From: Francisella tularensis subsp. holarctica
GTDB lineage: Bacteria; Pseudomonadota; Gammaproteobacteria; Francisellales; CACEW01
NCBI GenBank assembly: GCA_945860585.1
Contig: CAMARA010000003.1
Span: 368 to 64,367, forward strand
Direction: 5' to 3'
Length of the DNA stretch: 64,000 bases
Positions 35,260 to 63,931 of the stretch are shown piece after piece; position 1 is the first letter of the stretch, and each line of letters begins with the position of its first letter. Made by a program: the position numbers and the translations under genes. Under the pieces are notes generated by a model, which made no database searches, was not told the DNA's origin, and was given only the letters and a program-made list of their open reading frames with translations.

Positions 35260-36192
35260 ATGCGCAACAAACACGATTATTATTTCAAATCCTTGATGAC
35301 AAAGCAGGCCTTTTTTGAGTCATTTATCAAAACATATCTGCCTAAAGAATGGCTGGACCGTTTGGATTGGTCATCGATTCAGTTATATAAAATGAGTGGT
35401 AAGCATCGTTCTGAGAAACTGCACAAAGAGTTTGAGGCAGATGTGATTTATTTGGCGCGTTTTGCTGATCAGGAGTGTCTGATCTGGTTTCATTGCGAAC
35501 ACCAAACGACTCCGGATCGACTGATGACGCTGCGCACGGTGAATTATCAATCTGCCGAGCTACTGGGCTATGCAGAACAAAACCCACAAAAACCGTTGCC
35601 GACAATTATTACCCTGATTTATCATCAAGGCAAGCGGCCCTGGCCTTATAGTATGCGCTTGGAGGATTTGTTTGCTGAGCCACATCTGGCGATGAAATAT
35701 TTTGGTCAGCCTATTTTGATTGATCTGCCCCTGATTCCAGATGAACAATTGCGTCAGCACAACGGCATCGGCCCGGTTGAGATGGTTCTCAAGTACGTAC
35801 GTCGTAAAGAATTTAAAACAAACATGCGAATCTTGTTGACTGAACTTCAGTCAGTGGATGACACTTTGCGTTCAATTGTGATAGAATATCTCATCGAAGC
35901 GGTAGATGTTCCAGATCTGGTAGCAGTAGCCACAGAGTGTTTACCTAACGACAAGGAGGTCATTATGACAGTTGCAGAACAATTAATTAGACGTGGTGTT
36001 CGGCAAGGAATGCAGCAAGGCATGCAGCAAGGAATGCAGCAAGGCATACAGCAAGGCATGCAGCGGGGGATGCAAGATGGAATTTATCTGGTTGCAAAGA
36101 ATTTGCTAGAAAATGGTTCAGAAGTTTCCTTCGTAGCGAAGTGTACGGGCTTATCTACAGAGATTGTTACACGTCTTCGTGGCGCTCAGTAA
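35260..36192 (+). CDS. Rpn-family recombination-promoting nuclease / YhgA-like putative transposase (PD-(D/E)xK), intact copy
   Basis: 310 aa. HDYYFKSLMTKQAFFESFIKTYLP...EFEADVIYLARF...IWFHCEHQTTPD is the Rpn/Transposase_31 signature. The C-terminus has AEQLIRRG, a QGMQ repeat region and AKNLLENGSEVSFVAKCTGLS. Confidence 0.85.
   Translation: MRNKHDYYFKSLMTKQAFFESFIKTYLPKEWLDRLDWSSIQLYKMSGKHRSEKLHKEFEADVIYLARFADQECLIWFHCEHQTTPDRLMTLRTVNYQSAELLGYAEQNPQKPLPTIITLIYHQGKRPWPYSMRLEDLFAEPHLAMKYFGQPILIDLPLIPDEQLRQHNGIGPVEMVLKYVRRKEFKTNMRILLTELQSVDDTLRSIVIEYLIEAVDVPDLVAVATECLPNDKEVIMTVAEQLIRRGVRQGMQQGMQQGMQQGIQQGMQRGMQDGIYLVAKNLLENGSEVSFVAKCTGLSTEIVTRLRGAQ
36004..36075 (+). repeat. 12-bp tandem repeat (6 units) encoding (Q-G-M-Q)n inside the Rpn gene
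   Basis: caaggaatgcag / caaggcatgcag / caaggaatgcag / caaggcatacag / caaggcatgcag / cgggggatgcaa. The stand-alone module has about 4 units and the downstream pseudogene copy about 1. Confidence 0.85.
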
Positions 36193-39636: not shown

Positions 39637-40518
39637 GTGAAAAACAAACACGATCATTATTTTAAAGCCCTGATGACAAAACGGGCCTTTTTTGAGTCTT
39701 TCATCAAGGCGTATCTGCCTAAAGAGTGGCTGGATCTTTTGGATTGGTCATCGATTCAGTTATATAAAATGAGCGGCAGGCATCGTTCTGAAAAACTGCG
39801 CAAAGAGTTTGAAGCAGATGTAATTTATCTTGCGCGTTTTGGAGATCAGGAATGTTTAATCTGGTTTCATTGCGAACACCAAACGACTCCAGATCGACTG
39901 ATGACGCTGCGCACGGTGAATTATCAATCTGCGGAGTTGTTAGGCTATGCAGAACAAAATCCACAAAAGCCGTTGCCGACAATTATTACCCTGATTTATC
40001 AACAAGGCAATCGGCCCTGGCCCCATAGTATGCACTTGCAGGATTTGTTTGCGGAGCCACAGCTGGCCATGAAATATTTTGGCCAGCCTATTTTGATTGA
40101 TCTGCCCCTGATTCCAGATGAGCAATTGCGTCAGCATAACGGGATTGGCCCGGTTGAGATGGTGCTCAAGTATGTGCGTCGTAAAGAGTTTAAGACAAAA
40201 ATGCGAATCTTGTTGACCGAGCTTCAGTCAGTGGATGACATTTTGCGCCCAATTGTGATAGAATAACTCATCGAAGCGGTAGATGTTCCAGATCTGGTAG
40301 CAGCAGCCACAGAGTGTTTACCTAATGACAAGGAGGTCATTATGACAGTCGCAGAACAATTAATCAGGCGCGGTGTTCAGCAAGGTGCGCAGAATACATT
40401 GTATCTAGTTGCAAAAAATTTGCTAGAAAATGGTTTGGAGGTTCCCTTCGTAGCGAAGTGTACGGGCTTATCTGCCGAGATTGTTGTGAGCCTGCGGAAT
40501 CAAAAAAATTCTAAATAA
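39637..40518 (+). pseudogene. Rpn-family nuclease gene, second copy, interrupted by an in-frame TAA (or split into two genes)
   Basis: By eye it is about 90% identical at the DNA level to 35260-36192. Codon 210 is TAA (40264-40266) where copy 1 has TAT. The frame stays open afterwards to TAA 40516-40518, and the QGMQ repeat region is collapsed. Confidence 0.75.
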
Positions 40519-51257: not shown

Positions 51258-51287
51258 TGTCATCCTCGCGAAAGCGGGGGTCCAGTC
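51258..51287. repeat. Solo arm of the palindromic MITE-like family
   Basis: tgtcatcctcgcgaaagcgggggtccagtc matches the 30-bp arm of the elements at 22509 and 62098. There is no partner arm. It lies between the convergent Dabb and cspA genes. Confidence 0.6.
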
Positions 51288-51620: not shown

Positions 51621-52991
51621 TTAGGCTCCGGGGGTAAGTGTGGGGGCTGAAGTAGATTGTCCATTTTTTAGTACATCGTAAAAGGGGGCAGCCACTTGCT
51701 GGTGGGGCTTGGCCTGCCTACCGTTGATCGAGGGATCTCCTAAAAGACTTTGTTTGCTTTGAGTGGTAGGAGTTCTTACTGTGGACGTATCATGCACTGT
51801 AGTATTTAAAGAGGGCTCAGGAGCAGGTGCATCCATCTTCTTGGGTGAGCTAAACAGTCGCGCTGCAAATTTTGAGATGGTATTTCCAATTGCGTTCAAA
51901 GCGCTGCCAATTAATTTATACCACGGCTGTTTGTTTGGTTGATTCACTGCTGTAGCATTATTATTTGTTTGAAGGCCGCGTGTGTTCAGCGTCGACATTG
52001 CATCAACTCGATTCCTTGCCGCTTGCTGCGTTATTCTAAGTGCGGCGTCACGATGGTGTGGTGCTTTTTGGGCCGAGCTAGGTGGCGTCTGAGGTGCTGT
52101 TGCCATATTACTATGTGAAGATCCCGCGGTTCGAGTAGGGCTGCCGGTGTCTGTAGAGGGTTGCTCCGATGCTTGGTGGTGAGAACCTGTAGCAGATCTG
52201 TGCCCATCTACATAAGGGTTAGATAGGATCAGATTTAGAGGGGAATGAGCACCGGTGACGGGAGCCGCGCCATCTGTTGACATCGTTACTCCGCTAGACC
52301 AGCTGCCACTCCGGGCTCGATGCATTTGCACCGGTTCGGTATCGTATGTCGGAGCATTTTTATCGAGATTCATAATCTCGTTTGCACTCTTAAGAAGATT
52401 TGCCCATAAAGGAGGAGCTGAGCGTACGTCAAGCGTCTCTTTTTCAGATGTCGTGGTAAGTGACTTTATTGATTCTCCAGCCCCAAGCTTGCTTTTGTAA
52501 TCAAAGAACAGCTTTCGCCTGTTGCCGTGTAAGCGACTATCAAGTGAGGCCATTACTTTGATTAGTGCATCTATCTTCATCTGGTGATCCCAAATTTCTT
52601 CTTGTCTTACAATCTGTATAATTTGCTGCAGAATAGACTGTTTTGCTTCTTGCAGTTCTGCTTCAGTTGGATCAGCAGTCGATCCAGAAGCTGCTCCACT
52701 TGAAGTGACGGCCAGTGTGGGCTTTATTGTTGTAGTTGTAGTAGCAGCTTTTTTTAATTTCACTAGGGTGTTATAATATCCATTCTCTTTGCGGCGTTTT
52801 TCCGTCGGAAGTCTTGGTATGTCTTTATCGCTTGGAAATGGATCAGATAAAAGTTTTGCAGTCGTCAAGCTGTTCGAGTGTTTTCTGGTATCTACGATAG
52901 GTTGCGTCAGCTCACCATCATCATGTTTTTCCTTCAGATATGCTGCTTCTCTCTCTTGGTATGCCATAATCATTCCCCTTATAATCGTCAA
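51621..52991 (-). CDS. Ser/Thr/Pro-rich hypothetical protein, effector-like
   Basis: 456-aa ORF with low-complexity S/T/P/A/Q-rich stretches, no signal peptide and no TM segment. I recognise no family. Confidence 0.5.
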   Translation of the reverse strand: MTIIRGMIMAYQEREAAYLKEKHDDGELTQPIVDTRKHSNSLTTAKLLSDPFPSDKDIPRLPTEKRRKENGYYNTLVKLKKAATTTTTIKPTLAVTSSGAASGSTADPTEAELQEAKQSILQQIIQIVRQEEIWDHQMKIDALIKVMASLDSRLHGNRRKLFFDYKSKLGAGESIKSLTTTSEKETLDVRSAPPLWANLLKSANEIMNLDKNAPTYDTEPVQMHRARSGSWSSGVTMSTDGAAPVTGAHSPLNLILSNPYVDGHRSATGSHHQASEQPSTDTGSPTRTAGSSHSNMATAPQTPPSSAQKAPHHRDAALRITQQAARNRVDAMSTLNTRGLQTNNNATAVNQPNKQPWYKLIGSALNAIGNTISKFAARLFSSPKKMDAPAPEPSLNTTVHDTSTVRTPTTQSKQSLLGDPSINGRQAKPHQQVAAPFYDVLKNGQSTSAPTLTPGA

Positions 52992-53194
52992 AATGATGAA
53001 CTTGTTTTGCTCTATTGAAACATGCGCTTTAAAACAAATACACTCATTTTTTAACTGACAATTTTTGCATGAGAATTCTGAAATGTTATTTTTAGTTGTT
53101 GGTTTTCAGAATTCATAATTGAATTATAGATGAATAAAAAAAATATGTCAACATCTAGGTTTTTGTCTAGTGTTTATTTGTAATTTTGGTGGGC

Positions 53195-53866
53195 TTAGGG
53201 GGCGGGGTTGAAGTCTGCGCTGGCGAAGAGTTTGGGGTTGGTGGGGGGGGTGTGGTTGAGGATTTTTCTGTCGCGGTGGTGTTGGTAAAGAAGGCAGAGG
53301 GCGGCAGCGCAAAGTAGGGGGCCGGCGATGAGCAGTCCAATGCCGGCATGGGCGACGCTGGGGACGATTCCTTTGTCTGAAGTATAGATGGATGAGCCGA
53401 TGAGGATTGAGGCTAAGCCTGCTAAGGCGGTGATGGGGGTAAGATATGTTAGGATATTCTCTCGTAATCTTGCTTGCCTGCAGCGGGTGGCCACGTTGTC
53501 GATGCTTGTTTTGAAAAAGGGAAGAGGCTCTATGCGGTTTTGGCACTTTTGCAGTAAGTCGATCGTGGTTTTTTCCGTGCCGAGATTGATGAGAACGTGG
53601 CGAGCGGTGGGGAGGAGCGCTAGAATTTGTTTCTTGATTGTATTCCGAATTTCTTTGTTGGTGAGACGCAGCTTGAGCAGGTCATCAAATTCAAAGAATT
53701 CTGCGATCTTGCAAAGCATTACTGTAGGAAAAAAACCTACTCCCGCTAATCTGGGTGGGATGATAATGGCGATGTCACCTGCTGAACTCCCCGCTGTGCC
53801 TCTTTCCGAAAGAAGCGGTATGGTGAAGGGGGAGTTTGGTCCGTCTATACGTATGGCTTTGTACAC
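53195..53866 (-). CDS. F-box-like domain membrane protein (eukaryotic-like, effector candidate)
   Basis: Residues about 46-84 (nt 53615-53731), FPTVMLCKIAEFFEFDDLLKLRLTNKEIRNTIKKQILAL, fit the F-box consensus LP.E.L..I..fL...DLl.lrlV.K.w...v. Two C-terminal TM segments follow (ITALAGLASILIGSSIY, IGLLIAGPLLCAAALCLLY). Confidence 0.62.
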   Translation of the reverse strand: MYKAIRIDGPNSPFTIPLLSERGTAGSSAGDIAIIIPPRLAGVGFFPTVMLCKIAEFFEFDDLLKLRLTNKEIRNTIKKQILALLPTARHVLINLGTEKTTIDLLQKCQNRIEPLPFFKTSIDNVATRCRQARLRENILTYLTPITALAGLASILIGSSIYTSDKGIVPSVAHAGIGLLIAGPLLCAAALCLLYQHHRDRKILNHTPPTNPKLFASADFNPAP

Positions 53867-54613
53867 TTATGAACGCAGTGATGGTGTGGCTTCAGCTTCA
53901 AGACTTTGCTTTTGAAGGGTCAAGAAGGGATGGCTTAAAGCAAGCAGCAGTTGCAGTTTCATTGCGATCATGCTGGAGCGCTCATTAAGGGCAGTATTAA
54001 AAACAGACTGATAAATATTTTTTGGCAATAAGGCTTGTTGTTGGGTAAACAAATCATACTGACGCTGTGCCTGAGTACGCACGCTAGTATGCTCGTGCTG
54101 CAATGTCACGATTGCTTTTGTGAGAATCGCTTTTTCCTCGGCCTGTTCGGGATGGGATGTTTCACCGATGTTTAAGTATTGTTTGTGCAATGCTTTGCCT
54201 GTTTCTACAAGGGAATCTAAGTTATTGATATGCGTTGCGACGTCATCTAACAATGCCATCATGGTTGCTAGAATATGTTTTTCTTCGACGGTCATTGCAT
54301 CTTGTTGTTGGAAATTTTTTGCTACATCGGGAGAACCTTTGCTTTCGTCTTCGGGGAGCGTAAATGTTTGCGGGGCTTGATCCTGTTTGGCAGAAATGGC
54401 CTGCTGTGCTCTTTCCCAGGAGATGAGGCGCTCCTGGTAGGTGTTAAATAGATTATCCAGCTCTGTTTGTATCGCCGTGTTGATTTTAACTTGTGCAAGC
54501 TCGCTATACAGCACTTGAATTTCAGGATCATGGGGATGGCTGCGAAGCGCTTGTTTAATTGCGTTTTTTAAAGCGTCAAGTCTTGCATTTATTTCTTCGA
54601 AATGAACTGGCAT
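53867..54613 (-). CDS. Coiled-coil hypothetical protein, abutting the F-box gene
   Basis: 248 aa, helical and Gln/Glu/Leu-rich. Its stop codon lies directly against the ATG of the F-box gene. I recognise no family. Confidence 0.5.
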   Translation of the reverse strand: MPVHFEEINARLDALKNAIKQALRSHPHDPEIQVLYSELAQVKINTAIQTELDNLFNTYQERLISWERAQQAISAKQDQAPQTFTLPEDESKGSPDVAKNFQQQDAMTVEEKHILATMMALLDDVATHINNLDSLVETGKALHKQYLNIGETSHPEQAEEKAILTKAIVTLQHEHTSVRTQAQRQYDLFTQQQALLPKNIYQSVFNTALNERSSMIAMKLQLLLALSHPFLTLQKQSLEAEATPSLRS

Positions 54614-54895: not shown

Positions 54896-55534
54896 ATGCT
54901 GGAATTGTTGATGGTAGCGGGGGTGGGGCCTGATCATCCTACTGAGAAGCGTAAAATCTTTGATGATGCGGGTGGGGTGATTGGGCGGGATCAGCGCGCG
55001 GATTGGGTCTTGTATGATCCTAGCCGGCAGATTTCCAGCCAGCATGCGCGGATTATTTTTGCGCAGGGGCGCTATTTTTTGCTGGATATCAGTGTCAATG
55101 GTATTTTGACGGCGGCAGGAGAAGCGCTGCGTAAAGGCGAGCAGCGGCCCCTGCAATTGGGCGAGGTGTATGTGATTGGGCCATATCAGTTTGAAGTGAT
55201 GCGCATCAGTCAGGGGCAGGCGCTGGAGTCCTTTAAAATGGCGGGGCTGGAGCATCTTCTGGCTGAGCCGGCGACGGAATCCGCAACTTTGACGCCGCTG
55301 GTGTATGCAGAAAAATCGCAGCAGATCGCCCCGTTTTTGCCTGAAACGAATACGCTGAAAGCCTTTGATTTTATGCCGGAGCCGCTGGATTTTTATCCGA
55401 CAGCGGGCGTTAAAAAAGGCTTGCTGGATTTGTTTCGGGAACGCTTTCAACTGCCGGTAGAAGCTTTTGCTGGCCTGTCCGAGGCGCAGTTTCAGCAGCA
55501 GATTTTAGAAGTATGGTTGGACAGTATCAAATAA
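54896..55534 (+). CDS. fha: FHA-domain protein of the T6SS (Fha/TagH N-terminal type, short)
   Basis: FDDAGGVIGRDQRADWVLYDPSRQISSQHARIIFAQGRYFLLDISVNGILT is a classic FHA core. It sits directly upstream of tssJ, as in the P. aeruginosa H1-T6SS. Confidence 0.8.
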   Translation: MLELLMVAGVGPDHPTEKRKIFDDAGGVIGRDQRADWVLYDPSRQISSQHARIIFAQGRYFLLDISVNGILTAAGEALRKGEQRPLQLGEVYVIGPYQFEVMRISQGQALESFKMAGLEHLLAEPATESATLTPLVYAEKSQQIAPFLPETNTLKAFDFMPEPLDFYPTAGVKKGLLDLFRERFQLPVEAFAGLSEAQFQQQILEVWLDSIK

Positions 55535-55541
55535 GAGGAGC

Positions 55542-56009
55542 ATGCGTATGTTTAAAAAAAGTATAGCCCTGGCAGCGGCCCTGGCTTTGGGTGGTTGTGC
55601 CAGTGTGGATACGGAGATGTCAGCATCGAGTGATATCAATCCCGATATGAATGGAAATCCTTCCCCCATCGCAGTGAGTGTGTTTGAACTATCAAGCCCC
55701 AGTGCGTTTATGGCGGCTGATTTTATCCATTTGTATACCGAAGCGCCGGTGACACTGGGAGCGAGTTTGTTGCTGGAGCGCAATCTCATGCTGGTGCCGG
55801 GTACAAGCGAGAAACTGAGTTTACCCGTGGTGAAAGGCGTGACGGCGGTGGGCTATGTGGCGGCGTATCAAGATGTGACGGCCACGCAATGGCGGCAGCT
55901 TGTGCCCGTGGCGCCGAGTATGATGCAAGGCGTGACTGTGACTGTCAGCCTCGATAATCAGGGCATCCATATTGCCAACAATCCCACATCGGCTGGGGGC
56001 AGTTTATGA
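55542..56009 (+). CDS. tssJ: T6SS outer-membrane lipoprotein TssJ
   Basis: Lipobox ALALGGC, then INPDMNGNPSPIAVSVFELSSPSAFMAADFIHLY, the TssJ/VasD signature. 155 aa. Confidence 0.85.
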   Translation: MRMFKKSIALAAALALGGCASVDTEMSASSDINPDMNGNPSPIAVSVFELSSPSAFMAADFIHLYTEAPVTLGASLLLERNLMLVPGTSEKLSLPVVKGVTAVGYVAAYQDVTATQWRQLVPVAPSMMQGVTVTVSLDNQGIHIANNPTSAGGSL

Positions 56010-57331
56010 AAAGAGTGTTGTGGAAAGAAGGCCTGTTTATGCGCCCGCAACATTTGCAGAAACAGGATTTTTATTGGATGGAGCGCACACGTGAACTCTA
56101 TCAGCAGCAGGGGCCGTATGCGTATGGAATCAGTCATTTTAAATATTTAGAGGCGGCTCTGCAGCGCGGGGAGATCCGCATTCAAAGTTTGGAAGGCGTG
56201 ATGCCGGATGGAACGGTGTTTAATCTGACGGGGCGGGAGGCGCAATTGGCCTGCGCGCTGCCGGAGCAGATTGATCATGCCTGGCTGATTTTGACGCTGC
56301 CGCTTGAGACGGTTAAAGGCGTGCGCGTGGCAGCAAGTTATAGCGCGGCGCGGGAAGAGCGTTATTTTATCAGCCGGGAACAAGTCTCGGATGAGCTGAT
56401 CGGCGAGCAGGAAATGTTGGAGTTGGAAATTCTGGAGCCCAATTTTAAACTGCGCGTGGTGCAGGATCTCAGCGAGGCAGTGGGAGAGCACGCATTGCCT
56501 TTGCTGAAGCTGATTGAACGGCGTGAAAATGGTGTTCTGATCGTGGACGAACAGTTTGTGCCGCCTTTGCTCAATCTGCGTGCGCATGCGGAGCTCAATC
56601 AAATCATCAAGGAAATTGCGACGCTCCTGAATGTGCGGCGCCAGAAGCTGCTGGAGCGGATTGGTGGGGGTGATCAATATGGTGTGGCAGGGATCAACGA
56701 ACTCCTGCTGCTGCAGCTGATCAATCGCTACGAGCCCCTCTTACAGCATTATGAAAAACAGAGCCTGCTGCATCCCGAAACCGTCTATATTTTATTTTTA
56801 AAATTGGCGGGCGAGCTGCGGACGTTTACGAGTGAGGATCGGGGTTATGCAAACGCGCCGGCCTATCAGCATCAGGATTTGGGCGCTTGTTTTGCCGTCT
56901 TGATGGCGGATTTGCGCGAGGCGTTTAATTATGTCTTTGATGAGCCTGCGATTTTAATCCCCATCAAAGCGCATCAGTATAATTTGTATCTGGCGGAATT
57001 CGGCAAGATGTATTTTGATTATCAACGCCTGGTGCTGGAAGTCACAGCAAAAATGCCCCTGGAGCAGCTGCGCCATTTGTTCCCGACCCATGTCAAATTA
57101 GGCCCGACTGAGATGATCCGCGATCTGGTGAATCTGCAGATCCCCGGTATTCCGGTGACAGCGTTGCCCGTGGCCCCACGGCAGATTCCCTATCACAGCG
57201 GTACGGTTTATTTTGAGCTCGATAATCAGGGCGAGCTGTGGGAAAAACTACGCAATTCGCCCGGTCTGGCCCTGCATTTGGGCGGTACTTTCCCCGGTGT
57301 GGAACTGCGTTTGTGGGCGATTAAAAGATGA
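56006..57331 (+). CDS. tssK: T6SS baseplate/membrane-complex connector TssK
   Basis: MKRVLWKEGLFMRPQHLQKQDFY is the hallmark TssK N-terminus. 441 aa. Confidence 0.92.
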   Translation: MKRVLWKEGLFMRPQHLQKQDFYWMERTRELYQQQGPYAYGISHFKYLEAALQRGEIRIQSLEGVMPDGTVFNLTGREAQLACALPEQIDHAWLILTLPLETVKGVRVAASYSAAREERYFISREQVSDELIGEQEMLELEILEPNFKLRVVQDLSEAVGEHALPLLKLIERRENGVLIVDEQFVPPLLNLRAHAELNQIIKEIATLLNVRRQKLLERIGGGDQYGVAGINELLLLQLINRYEPLLQHYEKQSLLHPETVYILFLKLAGELRTFTSEDRGYANAPAYQHQDLGACFAVLMADLREAFNYVFDEPAILIPIKAHQYNLYLAEFGKMYFDYQRLVLEVTAKMPLEQLRHLFPTHVKLGPTEMIRDLVNLQIPGIPVTALPVAPRQIPYHSGTVYFELDNQGELWEKLRNSPGLALHLGGTFPGVELRLWAIKR

Positions 57332-57384
57332 ATAAATTGTTAAAAGATAGAATGTTGAATAAATTGTTAAAAGATAGAATGTTG
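57331..57384. repeat. Perfect 27-bp tandem duplication immediately after the tssK stop
   Basis: aataaattgttaaaagatagaatgttg occurs at 57331-57357 and again at 57358-57384. A partial related copy (ttaaaagatgaat) overlaps the last tssK codons. Confidence 0.9.
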
Positions 57385-57397
57385 AATTTGCCCGCCG

Positions 57398-57446
57398 TGT
57401 CATCCTCGCGCACGCGGGGATGACACAGGGCGTGGCGAGGATGACT
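57398..57446. repeat. Truncated/rearranged copy of the palindromic MITE-like family in the tssK-tssL spacer
   Basis: tgtcatcctcgcgcacgcggggatgaca (a self-complementary arm remnant) followed by cagggcgtggcgaggatgac. It shares gtcatcctcgcg / gcgaggatgac with the element at 62098. Confidence 0.65.
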
Positions 57447-57490
57447 CAATCATGCTTTTTTGAAAGCAAACATTTAAGGAGAGCGAAAAA

Positions 57491-58288
57491 ATGAATGGAT
57501 CATTGGAAGCAGATGATAAAACTGTTTTTATGCCGAATATTTCCCAAGGGCAGGCGCCGGCGGTGGCGGCAGTGCGGAATGTCAGTCCGAGTTTGCAGGC
57601 TTTGCAAGTCGATTACCGTTCCGGCCTGAATCCCTTGATGGAGCATGCAACAGAGCTCTTTCTGCTGCATTATCAAATTGTGAAGGGCCATTTTCGGGAG
57701 GCGGAATCGCTGCGGGCCATGGTGCAGGATGCCTTGCTGAAATTCGAATTACGCGCACAACAGGGTGGGGTGCAAAAGACGGTCATTAAGAGTGCGAAGT
57801 ATGTTCTCTGTACCTTCATGGATGAAGCGGTGATGCAGCAGTTTGGTCATGAATCTTCCTGGGGGCAGCGGACCTTGCTGGCGCAGTTTTTTAACGAAAC
57901 TTGGGGTGGCGCGACGGTGTTTAAAATTCGCCAGTTTTGTGTTGAGAATATCCATGAATATGCAGATTTATTAGAGATGATTTATGTCTGTCTATGTCTC
58001 GGTTTTAAAGGGCAATACGGCACTTTGGCGCAGGGAGAGACACAGCTGGAAAGTCTGAAGCGTGAGAGTTATCAGGCGATCATGGGGGTGAGGGGTAGTG
58101 ACCTCAATGCGCCATTATCTCCGCATGGGCCCTCGCGCTATCAGGGCAAAACGACTTTGAAAAAAGCGACCTCCTGGCGTTGGCTGGTGGCCGTCTGCCT
58201 GGGATTTATGCTGATTTCTTATCTGAGTTTGACGGTCTTCGTCAATATAGAAAGCGGGCCGGTATATGACAAAGTAATGGCGGCATGA
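57491..58288 (+). CDS. tssL: T6SS inner-membrane protein TssL (DotU family)
   Basis: NPLMEHATELFLL, AKYVLCTFMDEAVM, WGQRTLLAQFFNETWGG, LLEMIYVCLCLGFKGQY, and a single C-terminal TM segment. It has no peptidoglycan-binding extension. Confidence 0.9.
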   Translation: MNGSLEADDKTVFMPNISQGQAPAVAAVRNVSPSLQALQVDYRSGLNPLMEHATELFLLHYQIVKGHFREAESLRAMVQDALLKFELRAQQGGVQKTVIKSAKYVLCTFMDEAVMQQFGHESSWGQRTLLAQFFNETWGGATVFKIRQFCVENIHEYADLLEMIYVCLCLGFKGQYGTLAQGETQLESLKRESYQAIMGVRGSDLNAPLSPHGPSRYQGKTTLKKATSWRWLVAVCLGFMLISYLSLTVFVNIESGPVYDKVMAA

Positions 58289-58304
58289 GGCGAGTGAGGG
58301 CAAG

Positions 58305-61300
58305 ATGAGCATGATTAAAGCAAGCAAAGCAGTATTTAAGAACAAGATCTGGTGGGGATTATTTTTCTGCCTGTTGCTGTGTGCATTTATTTGGTGGGTG
58401 GGCCCGGCGATTTCGATTTATTCCAGTAGCCCCTTGCAATCCGTGGCGCTGCGTCTGCTTCTGATTGCAAGCATGCTGCTGCTCTTGGTATTGATGCGTT
58501 ATCGTGTGGCTTGCAGTCACGCTGTGGCCAGCTTTTTTAATGTGCATGCTAAATTGGAGTGGCCCCGTTTTCATCCCGGGTATCGTCTGGAAAAACGGCA
58601 GATGCGTCGCGATTTTAAAAAGCTAAAGGCTCAGCGTTCCTACGATTTGCCTTGGTATCTGGTGATGGGAGAGCAGGGCGCGGGTAAAACCAGTCTGCTG
58701 CGCGAGGCGGAGCTGAATCTGAGTTATCAGTCCTATAATCACATCCGGCATCATACCAAAAGCTTCCAGTGGGTGTTGGCGGAGGAGGGCTTGTTTATGG
58801 ATGTGCCGGCCGCTTTGTGTTGGCAGCGCGAGGAGGCACAGCGATTTTCCTGGCTGATGTTTTTGAAATATTTGAAAAAAGCCCGCAGCCGTCGTCCGAT
58901 CAATGGCCTGATCTTAACCATTAATCTGCGGGATTGGTTGGATCAGAAGCTGGATGATTGGCTGGAGTCCATGCGCCTGCGTTTGCATGAGTTGCAGGAT
59001 AAAGTCGGCCTGTCGATTCCGGTGTATCTGGTGTTTACGCATATCGATGTGCTGCCGGGATTTGCGGAATTTGTGTTGCGTTTTAGTGAAGAAGAGCGTC
59101 ACAGTATTTTAGGCCTGACCTTTGCGGAGTCTTCTCCCGCGCTGGCGCAATTGCCGTTGGCTTATGATGCCTTGATCCGTGCCTTAAACCAACGCATGCG
59201 CCGTGATTTGGATCAAAGTGCGAGTTATTATTTCCCCATGCAGATGGCAGCGCTGCGGGAGAAATTGCTGGGTCTGGGGCAGTTTTTGTTTCATCCGCGC
59301 AAAAATTTTATGCCGACCCGTTGGCGCGGGCTGTATTTTGTCAGCAATGGCGGGCTGGGCGCTGAGCAATATGATGTGATTTTGGGGGAGGCTTGTTTAA
59401 GCAATCTCGCGTGGCCGCGTGCTTTGCGGAATCGGCGGTTTTTTAGTGAGGAGATGTTCAAGCAGGCAATTTTGCCGGAAGCAGAACTGGTGGGCGTGCA
59501 GGCGGGTTCAGAGTGGCGTTTTAGTCTGTGGCAGGCCCTGAAGTTGGGCGGGTTGCTGCTCGCCACGCTGGGCGCAGTGGGAGTCTGGACGGGTAATATG
59601 GTCCAGCATCTGAATCAAAATAATCGCCTGGAAGCCGTCACCTCTGCGACCGATCTGTCGACCCTGGCGCAATGGTATCACGCGGGTTTAAACATCTGGC
59701 CAACGGGATTGTATGTCTATCAGAATCCGCAGACAGCGCTTGCATCTTTATATCAGCAGCAATTACAGAAGCAATTTTTGCCGCAACTCATCACGACCTT
59801 GCAAACAGGACTGGCTGCTGCCACCGCCACGGCGAATAATAACAATATGAATTCGATTGAAAATGTCTACAATTGGCTGTCCTGTACCTTGATGTTGAAT
59901 CAGCTGAATCAGCTCAATCCCGGGCAGATGCAGGCGTTGCTGGATAATAAGGCCAGTCTGCAGTTTTCACAAAATCTGGCGGATCTGCTGCAGCTTGGTT
60001 TTTCACCTGTCACAACGCTGGATCAAAATATCATTCAAAAAGCGCGCGCCGCGATGTGGAATAGTCCTTTGTACATGCAGGCCTATCTGCGCTTGAAGCT
60101 GGAGGCCGCCTCCCAAAACCAGCAAAACTTTCAATTGGCCGGCGCGATGAGTGCAGATAGTGCTGAAGTATTCAGTAATTTAAATGCCGTGTCCGTCCCT
60201 TATTTATTTAGCAAAGCAGGCTATGCGCAGTTTTATGCCGCACAGGCCAATCAGAGCTTGACGACGGTGGCGGATCAGTCCTGGGTGTTGGGGGATCAAT
60301 ATCATGCGCAAAACCCACCGCCCGATTTAGCTGCGGCGCGCGCACAGATGGATAATTTATATTGGACGGATTATATGAATGCCTGGGACAGTGCCCTCGC
60401 GCAGTTGAATATGGCGCAGTTCACCAGTCTGCAGCAGGAAATTGATTTGCTCACCACTTTGACAGAAAAAGATTCGCCCTTGATCAGCGTGGTCATGGTC
60501 GTGACGGATAATAGTAGCGCTGGCTTGATCAATAATAATTTGGTGGCGACGCATTATCTGCCGCTGACAGCCTTGCTCACGCAGAGTCAAGGCGCGGGGA
60601 TGCAAGGGGTGCTGGCCAGTTTGACGGCCTTGCAGCAGTATTTAAATAGCCTGGCCAATTCGAGTAATCCGCAGTTGTCAGCGTATACCGCGGCGACGCA
60701 GATTTTTGCCGGGCAGGCGGATCATTCCCTGACGGCGATTACCAGCGAAGCGCAGACCCTGCCGATGCCGCTCTCACGTTGGCTGAATCAGATTGTCGCC
60801 AATACCTATGCGATTATTTTTGCCACGGCCAATCAATATCTGGCGGATCAGTGGCAGGCGGGAGTGGTCTCTTATTATCAGCAAACTTTGGATGGGCGCT
60901 TTCCTTTTGCGGATTCTGAGAATGAAGTAACGCTGCAGGATTTTAGCAATTATTTTAAACCCGGCGGTGTGGAAGATAGTTTTGTCAAAAAATACCTGAG
61001 CCCCTTTTTGACCTATGATAGTTTTGGTCAGGCGCAGTGGGCGAGTGTGGATAATCTGCCCTTTAGTGCCGATGCCGCTATCCCGCGGGAAATCACGGCA
61101 GCGACGGTGATCCGCAATACTTTTTTTGGCGGCAATAATGGGGCGCTTAATTTTACGATTACGCCCGCGGCCATTGATAATGCGCATCGTGCGGTGCTGA
61201 ATTATGATGGCAAAGCAGTCGTGTTTGATGGCGATAGCGATCCTGGCATCAATATGGTCTGGCCGCCGCAAAATACCGATGGTTCGATCAACATCAGCTT

Positions 61301-61526
61301 TGATCGCCTGTTGATGCCGGATGAGGTCAAGAATTTTATGGGGCCCTGGGCGTTGTTCCATTTGCTGCAGGCCTCAACTTTAGTGCGTTCCAAATATAGC
61401 AGTCAGTATCAGGTGGAGATATCGCAAGATGGCATGGCGATTCATTTTAGTTTAAGTGCCAATAGTGTGAACAATCCCTTTGATTTGCGCCTGCTGCGTG
61501 ATTATACCCTACCCCGTAACTTTTAG
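58305..61526 (+). CDS. tssM: T6SS inner-membrane protein TssM (IcmF family) with an intact Walker A
   Basis: 1073 aa with an N-terminal TM hairpin and PWYLVMGEQGAGKTSLL (Walker A at 58668-58694). INGLILTINL, a third TM segment, and a long periplasmic ImcF-related and IcmF C-terminal region follow. Confidence 0.93.
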   Translation: MSMIKASKAVFKNKIWWGLFFCLLLCAFIWWVGPAISIYSSSPLQSVALRLLLIASMLLLLVLMRYRVACSHAVASFFNVHAKLEWPRFHPGYRLEKRQMRRDFKKLKAQRSYDLPWYLVMGEQGAGKTSLLREAELNLSYQSYNHIRHHTKSFQWVLAEEGLFMDVPAALCWQREEAQRFSWLMFLKYLKKARSRRPINGLILTINLRDWLDQKLDDWLESMRLRLHELQDKVGLSIPVYLVFTHIDVLPGFAEFVLRFSEEERHSILGLTFAESSPALAQLPLAYDALIRALNQRMRRDLDQSASYYFPMQMAALREKLLGLGQFLFHPRKNFMPTRWRGLYFVSNGGLGAEQYDVILGEACLSNLAWPRALRNRRFFSEEMFKQAILPEAELVGVQAGSEWRFSLWQALKLGGLLLATLGAVGVWTGNMVQHLNQNNRLEAVTSATDLSTLAQWYHAGLNIWPTGLYVYQNPQTALASLYQQQLQKQFLPQLITTLQTGLAAATATANNNNMNSIENVYNWLSCTLMLNQLNQLNPGQMQALLDNKASLQFSQNLADLLQLGFSPVTTLDQNIIQKARAAMWNSPLYMQAYLRLKLEAASQNQQNFQLAGAMSADSAEVFSNLNAVSVPYLFSKAGYAQFYAAQANQSLTTVADQSWVLGDQYHAQNPPPDLAAARAQMDNLYWTDYMNAWDSALAQLNMAQFTSLQQEIDLLTTLTEKDSPLISVVMVVTDNSSAGLINNNLVATHYLPLTALLTQSQGAGMQGVLASLTALQQYLNSLANSSNPQLSAYTAATQIFAGQADHSLTAITSEAQTLPMPLSRWLNQIVANTYAIIFATANQYLADQWQAGVVSYYQQTLDGRFPFADSENEVTLQDFSNYFKPGGVEDSFVKKYLSPFLTYDSFGQAQWASVDNLPFSADAAIPREITAATVIRNTFFGGNNGALNFTITPAAIDNAHRAVLNYDGKAVVFDGDSDPGINMVWPPQNTDGSINISFDRLLMPDEVKNFMGPWALFHLLQASTLVRSKYSSQYQVEISQDGMAIHFSLSANSVNNPFDLRLLRDYTLPRNF

Positions 61527-61535
61527 GAGAACCTT

Positions 61536-63629
61536 TTGAAAATCATTGTGATGAAAGATCGAAAGCAGCATCAGCATGCCCTGCCGGAATGGGAGGCCCA
61601 ATTTGCCCAATTAAAACGAAGCCTGCGTTGGGATCAGCGTCCCTGGTATTGGGTTTTAGGTGAGAGCCTGTTTGCAACAGAAGGACATGTTTCAGTGCAG
61701 GATCATGGCGTATTTATCGCGCCCGAAGCCGCAATTTGGCAGGATCAGCCGACTGCGCTGCGAGAATCCAAATGGCAGAGTTTTCAGCGGCAATGGCGAT
61801 GTGCGCAACCCTGGCATGCGCCGGAGGCGGTGATCGTGGGATATTCAATCGCATTGCTACAAGATCCAGAGCGCCTGGCTGCGTTTAATCAGGCGCTGGA
61901 GCAGGCTCTGCGTGAAGGGCGCCGGCATTGGAAGCCTCGGCCGATCTATGTGATGATCTCCGGGGTAGAGTCGGTCTCTGGTTTTGATGCTTATTTTAAG
62001 GCGCTCAAATCTGAGCAGAAGCAGCAGATTTTGGGTTTTACTTTTCCCTCTAAACAGGCTGATTTATACTGTGCACGGTCACAAATTGAGGTTTCTGTGT
62101 CATCCTCGCGAACGCGGGGATCCAGTCTAATCCAACAAGACCAAGGCTTTGAAGATATTGGACTGGATCCCCGCGTTCGCGAGGATGACACGTTACTTCA
62201 AAAGTCCCAATCTTTGGCCGCGTTCAGTATAGAAGCCGAATGTACAAGTCTGCAGCAGCGTTTGAGCACCAAAGTCCTCGCGCATTTAAGCTGGGAGGCC
62301 GCGCAAGCGCATGAAAATGCAGACATCTTGTTTTTCCCGCAAGCCTTGGCAAAAATCTATCCGCCTCTGATCACCGCAGTTAAGCCTTTGCCTTTAGTGC
62401 GGGGCGTGTATTTTGCCAGCGCCGATTCCCTCAAGCAGATTGAGACCGAGGTACTGGCAAAAGAGGCGCAGGCCTTCAAGCCCTGGAGCGCGCTGTGTGA
62501 GTATGTCGAAACGCAGCATAAAAAAATCGCCGTCGCGGTGTTGGTGGGCATGCTACTGCTATGGAGTATCGGCTGTTTCAGTCTGTTAAAAAAAGAGGCA
62601 ATGGAGCGGCAAGACAGTGCATCCTTGCCAGTCGTATCTGCGCCTGCGGTGGTCCGGCAAACCCAAACCGGCCTGAATGTCCCCGCGTTTGCGAGTATCG
62701 CTGCTGCGTCTTCCTGGCTCAGCGCGGCGAGTCAGCAGTCTTTTGCTGATCCTGCCACGCAGACGGCGATTCAGTCCGCTTTGCAGGCAGCGAGTGCCGC
62801 CTTGGCGCAGGTGCATGGCAGTGAGGCTGCGCTCAATTTATCCATTCAAATTTTAAAGGGTCAATGTGCGCCCTTGAATCAATTGGAGGCTTTGAGTGCA
62901 GCGGCTCCCCAGCCTGTGCAAGAGATCTTGAAGAAGATCGTCCAGGCAGTCACGCGCACTGTTTTTGCGGAAACGGAAAGGGGGATGGTGCAAAATTGGC
63001 AGGCGCAGCTGGCTGGATCTTGTCTCCAGGTGATTCAGAATCCCAATCCAGACCTCACCGACTTCAGTCATTTTTTCAGTCCGAGTGGGACGGGCGGCCG
63101 TTTTCTGGGTGAGCGCGTGGCGTCCCTCGTGAATATCCAAAGCGGTCAATTGCAGGAGCGTTCTGCCTATGGCGTGCCTTTTGTCCTGCCGGAATTTTTG
63201 CAGCAGGATATTGTGCGCCTCTTGTTGATTCACGATGCATTTTTTCATCATAGCAATACGCCGAGTTTGAGCATCAGTTTAACGCCGATGGTCTTGAGTA
63301 AAAACCTCGCCGACTTTAGCATTCAATATGGCGCGCAAAGTTTGTTTTATCAAAATGGCCCGCGCTTTGCCACGCTCTGGAATTGGCCTGCTGCTGCCGG
63401 TGATGTGGTCGTGAAATTTGTGGATTTGAACGGTCAGGTGCAGACCGACACCTACTCTGGCACCTGGGGTCTGATTCAACTCTTCAATTCCGCCAGTGTC
63501 AGCACGATTGATTCAAGCCATTTTGCCCTGACCTTCACCAAAGGAGACGCCTCTGCCACCTATGAATTGTCGCTCACCCAAGGTAATTTTGCCGGCGTGT
63601 TAGCCTTGCAAGGTTTTAATTGCCAGTAG
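61536..63629 (+). CDS. Truncated TssM/IcmF paralog with a degenerate P-loop, sitting in the position tagF usually occupies
   Basis: 697 aa. TTG 61536 lies 6 nt after AGGAG. The N-terminus aligns by eye to the TssM NTPase domain (PWYWVLGESLFATEG vs PWYLVMGEQGAGKTS; RPIYVMISGVESVSGFDAYF...ILGFTF vs IPVYLVFTHIDVLPGFAEFV...ILGLTF). There is one TM segment (IAVAVLVGMLLLWSIGCFSLL). The C-terminus aligns to the TssM C-terminus (DLTDFSHFFSPSG vs TLQDFSNYFKPGG; SGTWGLIQLFNSA vs MGPWALFHLLQAS). Confidence 0.7.
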   Translation: MKIIVMKDRKQHQHALPEWEAQFAQLKRSLRWDQRPWYWVLGESLFATEGHVSVQDHGVFIAPEAAIWQDQPTALRESKWQSFQRQWRCAQPWHAPEAVIVGYSIALLQDPERLAAFNQALEQALREGRRHWKPRPIYVMISGVESVSGFDAYFKALKSEQKQQILGFTFPSKQADLYCARSQIEVSVSSSRTRGSSLIQQDQGFEDIGLDPRVREDDTLLQKSQSLAAFSIEAECTSLQQRLSTKVLAHLSWEAAQAHENADILFFPQALAKIYPPLITAVKPLPLVRGVYFASADSLKQIETEVLAKEAQAFKPWSALCEYVETQHKKIAVAVLVGMLLLWSIGCFSLLKKEAMERQDSASLPVVSAPAVVRQTQTGLNVPAFASIAAASSWLSAASQQSFADPATQTAIQSALQAASAALAQVHGSEAALNLSIQILKGQCAPLNQLEALSAAAPQPVQEILKKIVQAVTRTVFAETERGMVQNWQAQLAGSCLQVIQNPNPDLTDFSHFFSPSGTGGRFLGERVASLVNIQSGQLQERSAYGVPFVLPEFLQQDIVRLLLIHDAFFHHSNTPSLSISLTPMVLSKNLADFSIQYGAQSLFYQNGPRFATLWNWPAAAGDVVVKFVDLNGQVQTDTYSGTWGLIQLFNSASVSTIDSSHFALTFTKGDASATYELSLTQGNFAGVLALQGFNCQ
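62098..62190. mobile_element. Palindromic MITE-like element (93 bp, perfect 30-bp inverted repeats) inserted in frame in the TssM-paralog CDS
   Basis: tgtcatcctcgcgaacgcggggatccagtc (62098-62127) and gactggatccccgcgttcgcgaggatgaca (62161-62190) are exact reverse complements. 93 bp is 31 codons. It translates as SSSRTRGSSLIQQDQGFEDIGLDPRVREDDT within the 697-aa ORF. Confidence 0.85.
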
Positions 63630-63685
63630 TGCTTTAAATAAATTTGTGTCATAATGGCAGGAGTTGTCAAAAAATGTGGATGTGC

Positions 63686-63931
63686 ATGATGGAAAAAGTT
63701 GTCAAAATGGGAAGTAATGGCAGAATATTGTTGCCAGCGACGTATCGTAAGGCGTTGCATTTGCAGGAAGGATCCCGTGTTTTCTTAAAGCTTGAGAATG
63801 GTCGCTTAGTGCTTTCGTCTATTGAGTTGGCAGCAAAAAAAGCCCAAGACTTAGTGAAGAAGCACTGTGCCGGGCATAGTTTAGTTGCCGACCTAAAAGC
63901 GATGCGGGATGAGGAGAATCAGCATGAGTAA
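63686..63931 (+). CDS. vapB: AbrB/SpoVT/MazE-fold antitoxin (VapB-like)
   Basis: MEKVVKMGSNGRILLPATYRKALHLQEGSRVFLKLENGRLVL is a swapped-hairpin AbrB-type DNA-binding domain. Its stop overlaps the downstream PIN gene. The start is ATG 63686 or 63689. Confidence 0.8.
   Translation: MMEKVVKMGSNGRILLPATYRKALHLQEGSRVFLKLENGRLVLSSIELAAKKAQDLVKKHCAGHSLVADLKAMRDEENQHE

Follow-up and report, generated by a model that had tools for sequence, protein, structure and literature searches.

The T6SS membrane complex has TssM as its central scaffold, and TssM is normally regarded as one gene product that fills two non-equivalent positions per protomer. We asked what to make of a locus at which tssM is directly followed by a second open reading frame that resembles it. 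The window, the 64,000-nucleotide stretch of DNA that was analysed, carries an operon-like module on the forward strand (54896-61526) in which fha, tssJ, tssK, tssL and tssM (here tssM1) lie upstream of the second frame, tssM2 (Table 1). No further T6SS genes turned up among the window ORFs that were scanned, and sheath, tube and baseplate genes are absent both from the window and, for most related loci, from such flanking sequence as was available. An F-box protein is encoded beside the module. The stop codon of tssM1 (TAG, 61524-61526) overlaps a Shine-Dalgarno sequence (AGGAG, 61525-61529) that lies 6 nt upstream of the TTG start of tssM2 (61536-61538), and a promoter/terminator scan returned no convincing terminator between the two genes and promoter matches of consensus level only. 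The arrangement TAGGAG-N6-TTG-AAAAT(T/C)AT, with the protein start MKII, is common to four genomes (the window, L005, L006 and L001); ATG starts are found in more distant second-copy members. Antisense ORFs within tssM2, for example 62853-63251 (-), were taken as spurious.

Table 1. Features of the tssM1-tssM2 locus (window coordinates; aa, residues of TssM2)
Feature	Coordinates	Strand	Basis or remark
fha	54896-55534	+	Pfam
tssJ	55542-56009	+	Pfam
tssK	56006-57331	+	Pfam
tssL/dotU	57491-58288	+	Pfam
tssM1	58305-61526	+	1073 aa, Walker A GEQGAGKT intact
Translational coupling signal	61525-61538	+	stop/Shine-Dalgarno overlap, then TTG
tssM2, whole ORF with stop	61536-63629	+	697 aa, TTG start
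Degenerate P-loop NTPase-like cytoplasmic subdomain, about aa 30-177	61623-62066	+	105-sequence alignment, model, PF14331
Dead Walker A, aa 36-50	61641-61685	+	PWYWVLGESLFATEG vs PWYLVMGEQGAGKTS in TssM1
Palindromic MITE/REP-like element, in frame	62098-62190	+	inverted arms, other copies
Helical part of cytoplasmic domain, aa 237-325	62244-62510	+	retained in every second-copy family member
Single TM helix, aa 333-351, equivalent to TssM TM3	62532-62588	+	Kyte-Doolittle
Low-complexity periplasmic linker, aa 352-404	62589-62747	+	alignment gaps vs P0002 and L006
Periplasmic helical subdomain, aa 405-575	62748-63260	+	BLASTP to TssM1 771-1056; TIGR03348 positions 850-1151
IcmF_C (C2-like) beta domain and C-terminal helix, aa 576-697	63261-63626	+	PF06744
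Second-copy signature TPMVLSKNLA...QSLFYQNGPR	63282-63365	+	inside IcmF_C domain
C-terminal stretch GNFAGVLALQGFNCQ	63582-63626	+	end of IcmF_C region

BLASTP aligned TssM2 with TssM1 in two regions, residues 407-684 pairing with 771-1056 (23% identity, E = 6e-14) and residues 23-170 with 104-273 (E = 4e-5), in agreement with the original prediction of a 697-aa protein paralogous to the adjacent TssM at both ends. The Pfam scan at E ≤ 0.1 returned two models and no other: PF14331 (IcmF-related_N; 68.9 bits against a cutoff of 25, E = 5.5e-19), with a best stretch at residues 78-179 that covers only positions 6-110 of the 259 in the profile, and PF06744 (IcmF_C; residues 581-680, 64.9 bits, E = 8.6e-18). 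Among the NCBIfam models, TIGR03348 (TssM) scored 158.9 bits (E = 1.6e-46); because this is below the equivalog cutoff of 388.15, TssM2 is classed as a TssM homologue and not as an equivalog. NF038226 (T4BSS IcmF), at 43.3 bits against a cutoff of 1000, did not reach equivalog level. An AF2 model of the protein (mean pLDDT 87.3) had nine significant Foldseek matches in the PDB, all nine to periplasmic chains of EAEC TssM (4y7m, 4y7l, 4y7o, 6hs7 and 6ixh; E 6e-14 to 7e-11, TMt up to 0.75). A sequence search of the PDB with the protein alone or with a 3-sequence profile found nothing at E ≤ 1, and EAEC TssM was reached only by a 105-sequence profile and by the fold search. A TagF identity was rejected for lack of a TagF match in the Pfam scan (E ≤ 0.1), and a TssA or VasL identity for lack of an ImpA_N match. 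Pfam and NCBIfam reported IcmF/TssM models only and placed the protein confidently in no accessory family, be it TagF, VasL/TssA or any other, so the prediction that the protein bears no likeness to TagF was borne out.

The cytoplasmic NTPase-like subdomain retains alpha/beta secondary structure in the model, with weak Foldseek matches to the GTPases G-alpha, HflX and RABL3. The Walker A/P-loop motif GxxxxGK[ST] is absent, GESLFATEG standing where TssM1 has GEQGAGKT; this replacement had been predicted and was confirmed, and the 105-sequence alignment extends it to G3, where Asp is replaced by Ala (FIAPEA vs generic DTAG), and to G4 (SGVE vs generic TKxD). Because G1, G3 and G4 are all gone, canonical nucleotide binding by TssM2 is excluded on its sequence. 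The helices at residues 213-313 were modelled with pLDDT >90. A hydropathy scan found one hydrophobic segment in TssM2, the helix at aa 333-351 (Kyte-Doolittle score 2.4 in a 19-aa window; inside model helix 316-360), which is preceded by RKK in the orthologs and is predicted to be oriented N-in, C-out. The same scan found no N-terminal TM hairpin, and TssM1 carries one at aa 20-64. PF06761 (IcmF-related), the central periplasmic domain, had no Pfam match in the window protein and is present in the orthologs P0002/L005, L006 and P0130-P0134; the linker, with pLDDT <50 at aa 360-378, replaces the domain still carried by L005 and L006. The single TM segment, the missing hairpin and the missing central domain are all as the original prediction had described them. 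The periplasmic helical subdomain is the counterpart of the helical portion of EAEC TssM 835/869-1129, a fragment that has been crystallised (Foldseek TMt 0.70-0.75). Retention of the C-terminal IcmF-type region, likewise claimed from the outset, is upheld by PF06744 and by the EAEC TssM fold matches. Within this region the window protein carries TPMVLSKNLADFSIQYGAQSLFYQNGPR of the second-copy signature and ends in GFNCQ (pattern C-terminal ...F.C). The blocks PWYxVxGE, P(I/V)Y, GF..(F/Y), ILG(F/L)TF, QNWQA/QWQA, DFS.(F/Y)F.P.G, the TP block and G(P/T)W(A/G)L, all listed as shared, occur in both proteins; the W.WP block exists in TssM2 (WNWP), but TssM1 has VWPP.

The palindromic element inside tssM2 has arms that are perfect 25-nt inverted repeats (62099-62123 and 62165-62189). 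Further copies occur in the window at 22510-22603, 51259 and 57399, with 0 expected by chance. It sits in an insertion of ~59 aa (aa ~178-236, nt 62067-62243) that is missing from all tssM2 orthologs and is modelled as disordered (pLDDT <50 at aa 185-211). The element thus offers an example of a mobile repeat tolerated in frame within a coding gene, as a modelled disordered loop.

Between genomes, tssM2 shows a pS of about 0.6-0.8, which is saturated, and an overall pN of 0.21-0.27, with 0.13-0.155 in the last 200 aa; for the cytoplasmic helical segment (aa 237-325), pN between orthologs is 0.28-0.33 vs a pS of 0.66-0.86. Overall protein identity is 58-67%, comparable to that of TssJ (63-71%). 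The last 125 aa are 78-80% identical in TssM2 vs 70-76% in TssM1, and the cytoplasmic domain evolves faster in TssM2 (51-59% vs 69-75% identity). Second-copy ORFs of 430-1104 aa are intact across lineages, and the deletions and the element insertion are all in frame. A pseudogene is ruled out by a pN far below pS and by indels that all keep the frame. Taken together, these results showed that the tssM2 product is a true TssM/IcmF homologue under purifying selection.

Tandem tssM paralogs, for which a survey of other T6SS loci had been proposed, were found at nine loci besides the window. In all, a pair with the second copy directly 3' of the first is present at no fewer than 10 loci of a single T6SS lineage in uncultured Gammaproteobacteria (the window, L001, L005, L006, L007, L008, L010, L012, L014 and L015). 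The second-copy family was revealed by an exhaustive HMM search, a word-indexed search with a 16-sequence alignment having given almost nothing new; all of its sequences come from metagenomes or MAGs, and related MAGs are labelled Thiotrichales and Pseudomonadota. The L014 pair lies in a complete cluster with tssA, tssB, tssC, tssE, tssF, tssG and clpV, where tssA, a genuine ImpA_N gene, comes after the pair. The placement of tssM2 in the slot of tagF, as first proposed, stands only as an analogy to the Pseudomonas aeruginosa H1-T6SS, where fha-tssJ-tssK-tssL-tssM is followed by tagF, and does not hold for L014. In NJ trees of C-terminal columns the second copies form one clade (99% bootstrap) that includes the window protein, and the core first copies form another (95%); a sister relationship of the two has a bootstrap of only 23% and was not recovered. 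The second copy could have originated by ancient duplication or by acquisition from another T6SS lineage. A recent tandem duplication was rejected, because the copies are ~23% identical and fall into separate, well-supported clades. The pairwise distances of the two copies correlate over five loci (r = 0.91), which fits co-inheritance.

The second copies can be ordered by how much of TssM they keep. The least trimmed are full-length proteins that still have the hairpin and an intact Walker A (P0148, P0139 and P0140); Walker A is then lost (P0141), followed by the hairpin (forms of 904-998 aa) and the central domain (forms of 577-771 aa, the window protein included), until forms of 430-492 aa retain only the cytoplasmic domain, TM helix, Pro-rich linker and IcmF_C. 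There is one case of a full-length second copy with intact Walker A inside a complete T6SS cluster, and the orthologs L006 and L001 lack the first ~95 aa outright. IcmF_C is the sole periplasmic part retained by all second copies, and the signature TP.(V/Y)LSKN.A...Y.NGP shows almost no variation throughout. The second-copy TssMs are thus a conserved family trimmed to differing degrees in which IcmF_C is always kept. Full-text literature searches turned up no account of a second TssM or of one in tandem, consistent with the first impression that this is not a described T6SS component, and we regard the family as undescribed.

A comparison of the two copies within IcmF_C revealed a further difference. 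Typical TssMs share 29 conserved columns in this domain, of which both copies keep 5, TssM1 alone 8 and TssM2 alone 6 (13 second and 10 first copies, one MAFFT alignment). The last six, Q601, Y605, G608, P609, G633 and F694, are lost in the first-copy clade; in the other three domains TssM2-only retention amounts to 3, 0 and 0 columns. By this alignment the two copies retain complementary subsets of typical-TssM residues in the C-terminal beta domain. That the TssM1 beta domain is without residues that TssM2 keeps points to complementation and not competition. The Q..Y.NGP motif of TssM2 aligns to Q999-P1008 of EAEC TssM in the 105-sequence profile alignment; for mapping it, the published structure paper gives interface areas only and no residue-level TssM-TssJ contacts.

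The most likely role of TssM2 is that of a non-enzymatic TssJLM partner subunit that acts through IcmF_C, having arisen by tandem duplication and repeated trimming, a reading to which we give somewhat better than even chances. TssM2 would be inserted N-in, C-out beside TssM1, and its cytoplasmic remnant would hold it in the TssL/TssM1/baseplate layer, while the NTPase and the channel-forming pillars would stay with TssM1. The tethered IcmF_C would provide the ancestral C-terminal contact, most plausibly to TssJ or the outer-membrane-proximal tip, and the C-terminal domain of TssM1 would have lost the residues matching that contact. Redundant parts of TssM2 may have been trimmed repeatedly and independently after the duplication, and the family therefore looks like a case of subfunctionalisation. 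The conserved trimmed family and the complementary retention together favour a heteromeric membrane complex over a regulator or cap. In the most reduced second copies the periplasmic tether has only ~45 residues, a length that may not suffice to reach a TssJ anchored in the outer membrane, in which case TssM2 could have a different partner. More tentatively, and with less confidence than in the partner role as such, we consider an obligate TssM1/TssM2 hetero-oligomer, in which TssM1 would supply the NTPase and pillars and only TssM2 would keep the Q..Y.NGP/LSKNLA surface contacting TssJ or the outer-membrane tip. If this is true, the deletion series from 1100 to 430 aa defines the minimal separable modules of TssM.

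The position of tssM2 3' of tssM, which is that of tagF in the P. aeruginosa H1-T6SS, might instead indicate a negative regulator or decoy, whose IcmF_C would titrate TssJ or whose cytoplasmic remnant would titrate TssL, TssK or Fha. Membrane-complex assembly would then be limited by a post-translational brake analogous in function to TagF. The weak TTG start conserved in the window subclade suggests sub-stoichiometric synthesis, as would suit such a brake, and the minimal forms are potential binding modules only, unable to form pillars; distant members, however, have ATG starts, and Pfam found no sequence similarity to TagF. Moreover, unlike a brake, the family starts as full-length, Walker-A-intact TssMs in a complete cluster, and the loss from TssM1 of generically conserved beta-domain residues that TssM2 retains argues for complementation, which together make a regulator unlikely.

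Two further explanations carry less weight still. A function outside the classical T6SS, as an IcmF-like stabiliser (for example of a Dot/Icm type IVB system) or in a sheathless fha-tssJKLM envelope complex, is suggested by a module that at most loci stands alone amid housekeeping genes, far from any gene for sheath, tube or baseplate, and by the neighbouring F-box protein, which hints at a host-associated lifestyle like that of the Legionellales, whose DotU and IcmF work for a T4BSS (preprint 10.1101/315721). Yet the T4BSS IcmF model reaches 43 bits vs 159 bits for the T6SS TssM model, the T6SS-specific tssJ and tssK lie in the same operon-like module, the L014 pair is embedded in a complete T6SS cluster and scattered T6SS loci have been reported in a Legionellales symbiont; we consider this function improbable. 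Strongly disfavoured, and the least credible of all, is a functionless duplicate decaying to a stage that differs by genome. Large independent deletions of the N-terminus and central domain, the loss of every nucleotide motif, a mobile palindromic element in the window copy and a cytoplasmic domain that evolves faster than that of TssM1 could all be taken for erosion, but the ORFs remain intact despite saturated synonymous sites, pN stays far below pS in every retained domain and no deletion or element insertion breaks the frame. In addition, conservation of the C-terminal domain equals or exceeds that of its TssM1 counterpart, and the signature hardly varies across the family.

The trimmed TssM2 series represents a natural dissection of separable TssM modules. 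It suggests that the function of the C-terminal beta domain can be delivered in trans, that the second copy can do without the NTPase and the pillar domain, and that hetero-oligomeric membrane complexes may exist. For annotation, it follows that short proteins beside tssM that combine IcmF_N with IcmF_C are not necessarily fragments or pseudogenes.

With canonical TssM (IcmF/ImpL/VasK; EAEC TssM 4Y7O, 6HS7, 6IXH), TssM2 shares the IcmF-related_N region, the TM3-equivalent helix, the C-terminal helical and C2-like beta module (Foldseek TMt 0.70-0.75), the blocks PWY, P.Y, GF, G.TF, RG.YF, P.P and W.(W)P, and a place in an fha-tssJKLM module. In E. coli TssM, the C-terminal helical and beta module is the crystallised TssJ-binding fragment. 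TssM2 differs in lacking the TM1-TM2 hairpin, the G1/G3/G4 motifs and, in this genome, the PF06761 pillar domain, in its length (697 aa vs ~1100-1200 aa) and in its place in a clade of its own, whose members are always accompanied by a primary TssM. The T4BSS IcmF (Legionella Dot/Icm; NF038226) is of the same superfamily and pairs with DotU but, unlike TssM2, is a full-length three-TM protein with no tandem pair. The likeness to TagF, a post-translational T6SS repressor, is confined to gene position: TagF is soluble and cytoplasmic, whereas TssM2 is membrane-bound and has a large periplasmic domain, and Pfam shows no sequence or domain similarity between them.

Precedents exist for both accessory and non-identical subunits. 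TsmK of Acinetobacter, a lineage-specific extra inner-membrane component, binds TssM, TssL and TssK and lends stability to a non-canonical membrane complex (PMC10564176), and is thus a precedent for accessory membrane-complex subunits. It has a ketoacyl-synthase-like fold and is not a TssM homologue, whereas TssM2 is one; TsmK is also described as compensating for a missing TssJ, whereas tssJ is present beside tssM2. The EAEC complex contains two non-equivalent TssM molecules per asymmetric unit (PMC6517824), and in Citrobacter two TssM length variants are needed in a set ratio (PMC4256274). Two TssM forms occur in one T6SS in Citrobacter rodentium CTS1 and Yersinia pseudotuberculosis T6SS-3 (PMC4256274); because both forms and their ratio are required, they provide a precedent for complexes with non-identical TssM subunits. 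In those systems both forms come from one gene by transcriptional frameshifting, whereas TssM1 and TssM2 are encoded by separate, long-diverged genes. The short form of CTS1 and T6SS-3 is without the C-terminal TssJ-binding domain, whereas TssM2 keeps its C-terminal domain and is instead missing the hairpin, the central domain and the NTPase motifs.

The ORF listing recovered the predicted second TssM copy (TssM2) with exactly the proposed coordinates and length; its gene starts at a TTG 9 nt past the stop of the ORF encoding the primary TssM (TssM1; see table). This TTG lies 6 nt 3' of an AGGAG overlapped by the tssM1 stop TAG, and the TAGGAG-N6-TTG arrangement, with the protein start MKII, is common to tssM2 of the window and three other genomes. 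The claimed similarity to the adjacent TssM at both ends was borne out by two BLASTP segments, TssM2 aa 407-684 with TssM1 771-1056 (E=6e-14) and aa 23-170 with 104-273 (E=4e-5). In Pfam, TssM2 matched IcmF-related_N (68.9 bits, E=5.5e-19) and IcmF_C (64.9 bits, E=8.6e-18) and no further domain at E<=0.1, as expected from the proposed lack of TagF likeness. Walker A is replaced at the predicted place, and in a 105-sequence alignment the other two GTPase-type motifs of typical TssMs, G3 DTAG and G4 TKxD, are lost as well, with FIAPEA and SGVE instead. A hydropathy scan agreed with the prediction of a single TM segment (aa 333-351) and no N-terminal hairpin. The list of motifs shared by the two proteins stood except for W.WP, which is literal in the paralog only. 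The original observation is thus confirmed.

Features of the window, of related loci and of the second-copy family (aa, numbering of the window protein; conserved columns, number retained)
Feature	Location	Description
tssM2	61536-63629 (+)	697 aa
tssM1	58305-61526	1073 aa
Walker A replacement, TssM2	61641-61685 (aa 36-50)	PWYWVLGESLFATEG; TssM1 counterpart PWYLVMGEQGAGKTS
NTPase part	aa 30-180	both 14, first copy only 10, second copy only 3
Cytoplasmic helical	aa 237-325	both 7, first copy only 5, second copy only 0
Periplasmic helical	aa 400-575	both 12, first copy only 7, second copy only 0
IcmF_C beta domain	aa 576-697	both 5, first copy only 8, second copy only 6
Palindrome in tssM2	62098-62190	~93 nt, near-perfect: GTGTCATCCTCGCGAACGCGGGGATCCAGTC, loop, GACTGGATCCCCGCGTTCGCGAGGATGACAC
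Palindrome, full copy	22510-22603	intergenic
Palindrome, solo arm	51259-51283	
Palindrome, solo arm	57399-57423	between tssK and tssL
MazE/AbrB-type antitoxin gene	63644-63931 (+)	directly 3' of tssM2
Three genes	51621-54613 (-)	divergent from fha, precede T6SS module
Mobile-element genes	1272-2507, 20189-21388, 35260-36192, 39637-40266	phage-type integrase near window start; fatty-acid desaturase + ISL3 transposase fragment ORF; two YhgA-like (Transposase_31)
Large ORFs	7227-9734, 11860-14589	835 and 909 aa; no confident Pfam assignment
ORF6N-domain gene, 193 aa	L008 12730-13311	inserted between tssM1 and 456-aa tssM2
TssM pair	L012 6510-10004	first-copy Walker A non-canonical (GPAGSGKK); full-length second copy P0141 without one (LADPDYDFQ)
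Stage 1		full length, TM hairpin, intact Walker A: P0148, P0139, P0140
Stage 2		full length, dead Walker A: P0141
Stage 3		904-998 aa, no hairpin, central PF06761 domain kept: P0130, P0133, P0134, P0129, L005
Stage 4		577-771 aa, without central domain: window protein, L001, L007/P0132, P0135, P0136
Stage 5		430-492 aa, only cytoplasmic domain, TM, Pro/Ala-rich linker, IcmF_C: L008/P0137, P0138, P0142

When 1.84 billion representative proteins were searched exhaustively with a profile HMM of the paralog, ~15 clusters scored clearly over the typical-TssM background. All family sequences derive from metagenomes or MAGs. A second tssM directly 3' of the primary tssM was found in ten loci (the window, L001, L005, L006, L007, L008, L010, L012, L014 and L015), and the second copies fall into stages of reduction. 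Within the window subclade, N-terminus and central domain are both present in L005 and both missing in L001; L006 lacks the first ~95 aa and has the central domain, and the window protein has the N-terminus and lacks the central domain. These differing combinations show that the losses were independent. Both L012 copies may depart from a standard NTPase. In NJ trees on MAFFT alignments (100 bootstraps), all second copies, full-length ones included, form one clade (99%, C-terminal columns) and the core primary TssMs a separate clade (95%). The two are not recovered as sisters (23%), which suggests that the duplication is old or that the second copy was acquired from another lineage. Pairwise distances of first and second copies correlate (r=0.91, five loci), consistent with co-inheritance.

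We compared retention at columns at least 60% conserved in typical TssMs between 10 first-copy-clade and 13 short second-copy sequences, the counts resting on one alignment and modest sampling. In the NTPase, cytoplasmic helical and periplasmic helical domains, the second copy shows mostly plain loss of conserved residues. The IcmF_C beta domain shows a reciprocal pattern: F580, D599, G600, P643, F647, NPF 684-686 and P697 are held by the first copy only, and Q601, Y605, G608, P609, G633 and F694 by the second only. Where typical TssMs carry DGQ...Y.HGP, all second copies have Q.L.YQNGPR after a nearly invariant TP(M/L)(V/Y)LSKNLA, and core first copies have VVFDGDS or VDDSGKS. The first copy of L014 still has YANGP, and its second copy is still full-length. 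Furthermore, many TssMs have a Cys near the C-terminus (F.CP..L), which nearly every second copy keeps (C696, at least 90%); first copies of the window subclade and of L008 lack it. This pattern looks like subfunctionalisation, with TssM2 alone now apparently carrying part of the C-terminal function of the ancestor, which would account for the beta domain being the sole periplasmic module never lost among second copies.

The AF2 model of TssM2 (105-sequence alignment, no templates) has a mean pLDDT of 87.3 and is disordered only at aa 185-211, a mobile-element insertion, and aa 360-378, the periplasmic linker. In the PDB, Foldseek found nine significant matches (E 6e-14 to 7e-11), all periplasmic chains of EAEC TssM (6ixh, 4y7m, 4y7l, 6hs7, 4y7o), with TMt 0.70-0.75 on the 835/869-1129 fragment, the one crystallised with TssJ (PMC6517824). 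As would fit a degenerate P-loop fold, the N-terminal domain had only weak matches (E 0.1-0.5), to the GTPases G-alpha, HflX and RABL3. The insertion corresponds to the palindrome in tssM2, a repeated MITE/REP-like element that is in frame, is translated as SSSRTRGSSLIQQDQGFEDIGLDPRVREDDT and forms a disordered loop in the model. Its peptide is also in frame in P0004, an unrelated 802-aa PDDEXK-family protein on another contig (91% identity over the segment). We take the element to be reminiscent of in-frame Rickettsia palindromic elements.

According to Pfam, tssM2 is preceded by fha, tssJ (T6SS-SciN), tssK (T6SS_VasE), tssL (DotU) and a complete TssM1 (IcmF-related_N, IcmF-related, IcmF_helical, IcmF_C). 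TssM1 is itself atypical (G4 THxD vs TKxD, G3 D(V/L)P vs DTAG): its beta-domain Y.HGP motif is lost, and the Cys near the C-terminus is replaced in L008 and the window subclade, where the protein ends ...DYTLPRNF. In L001, mazE and then a PIN-domain toxin gene lie 3' of the second copy; as mazE follows it in the window too, this subclade conserves the toxin-antitoxin pair as a neighbour; the window ends before any toxin gene. The three genes preceding the module encode a protein of 223 aa that combines an F-box motif (PF00646, 21.4 bits, barely over cutoff) with a C-terminal hydrophobic stretch, a 456-aa protein, Ser/Thr/Pro-rich by eye, and a 248-aa protein, the latter two without a Pfam match. 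They may be candidate eukaryote-directed effectors, a possible hint of a host-associated lifestyle.

Given its losses, TssM2 might be a functionless remnant. Orthologs lie directly after tssM on a 172-kb metagenome scaffold (L001, 577 aa), in a MAG labelled Pseudomonadota (L005/P0002, 904 aa) and in one labelled Thiotrichales (L006, 827 aa). Comparison between these genomes gives saturation at synonymous sites (pS ~0.6-0.8) and a non-synonymous divergence of 0.21-0.27 for the whole gene and 0.13-0.155 for the last 200 aa, and length differences are all in-frame. A pseudogene was rejected on these grounds; by such measures tssM2 is a selected gene, and a remnant is hardly credible. Identity is 58-67% overall, similar to TssJ (63-71%), and 78-80% over the last 125 aa vs 70-76% for primary TssM; evolution is faster in the cytoplasmic part (51-59% vs 69-75%). 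A role outside the classical T6SS might be read from the loci other than L014, where housekeeping genes surround an fha-tssJ-tssK-tssL-tssM1-tssM2 or dotU-tssM1-tssM2 module (just the latter in L015), and where no sheath, tube, baseplate or ClpV genes occur in the available flanks (window 54896-63629, L001, L007, L008, L012, L015); the ORFs scanned across the window included no other T6SS gene. Only in L014 is the pair part of a complete T6SS cluster (tssM1(part)-tssM2-tssA-tssB-tssC-tssE-tssF-tssG-...-clpV), and we consider such a role quite improbable.

Taken together, TssM2 is a single-pass TssM derivative, conserved and under selection, with dead nucleotide motifs and a TssM-type C-terminal module, always encoded together with a primary TssM. 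A decoy or brake we think unlikely; the reciprocal beta-domain pattern inclines us towards a partner subunit. TssM2 would insert N-in, C-out as a non-enzymatic partner within the TssJLM complex, its tethered IcmF_C contacting TssJ or the outer-membrane-proximal tip in an ancestral manner no longer possible for TssM1, which would supply NTPase and pillars.

Against known accessory families, the profile check matched the original prediction: TssM2 has no similarity to TagF, TssA/VasL or T4BSS IcmF, the model of the last scoring only 43 bits. TssM2 is homologous to TssM but lacks four defining features, namely the P-loop, three TM segments, the central domain and an equivalog score (NCBIfam TIGR03348, 158.9 bits, under the 388-bit cutoff), and on this comparison should not be classed among equivalogs of TssM. 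Full-text literature searches yielded no description of tandem or second TssMs, in line with its not having been recognised as a described T6SS component, and the family, whose database clusters are without names, is a TssM-derived accessory family for which we found no prior description. For a partner subunit, precedents for non-identical subunits come from the EAEC complex, where TssM occupies two non-equivalent positions (PMC6517824), and from Citrobacter, which requires two TssM length variants (PMC4256274), and TsmK exemplifies a lineage-specific accessory membrane-complex protein (PMC10564176).
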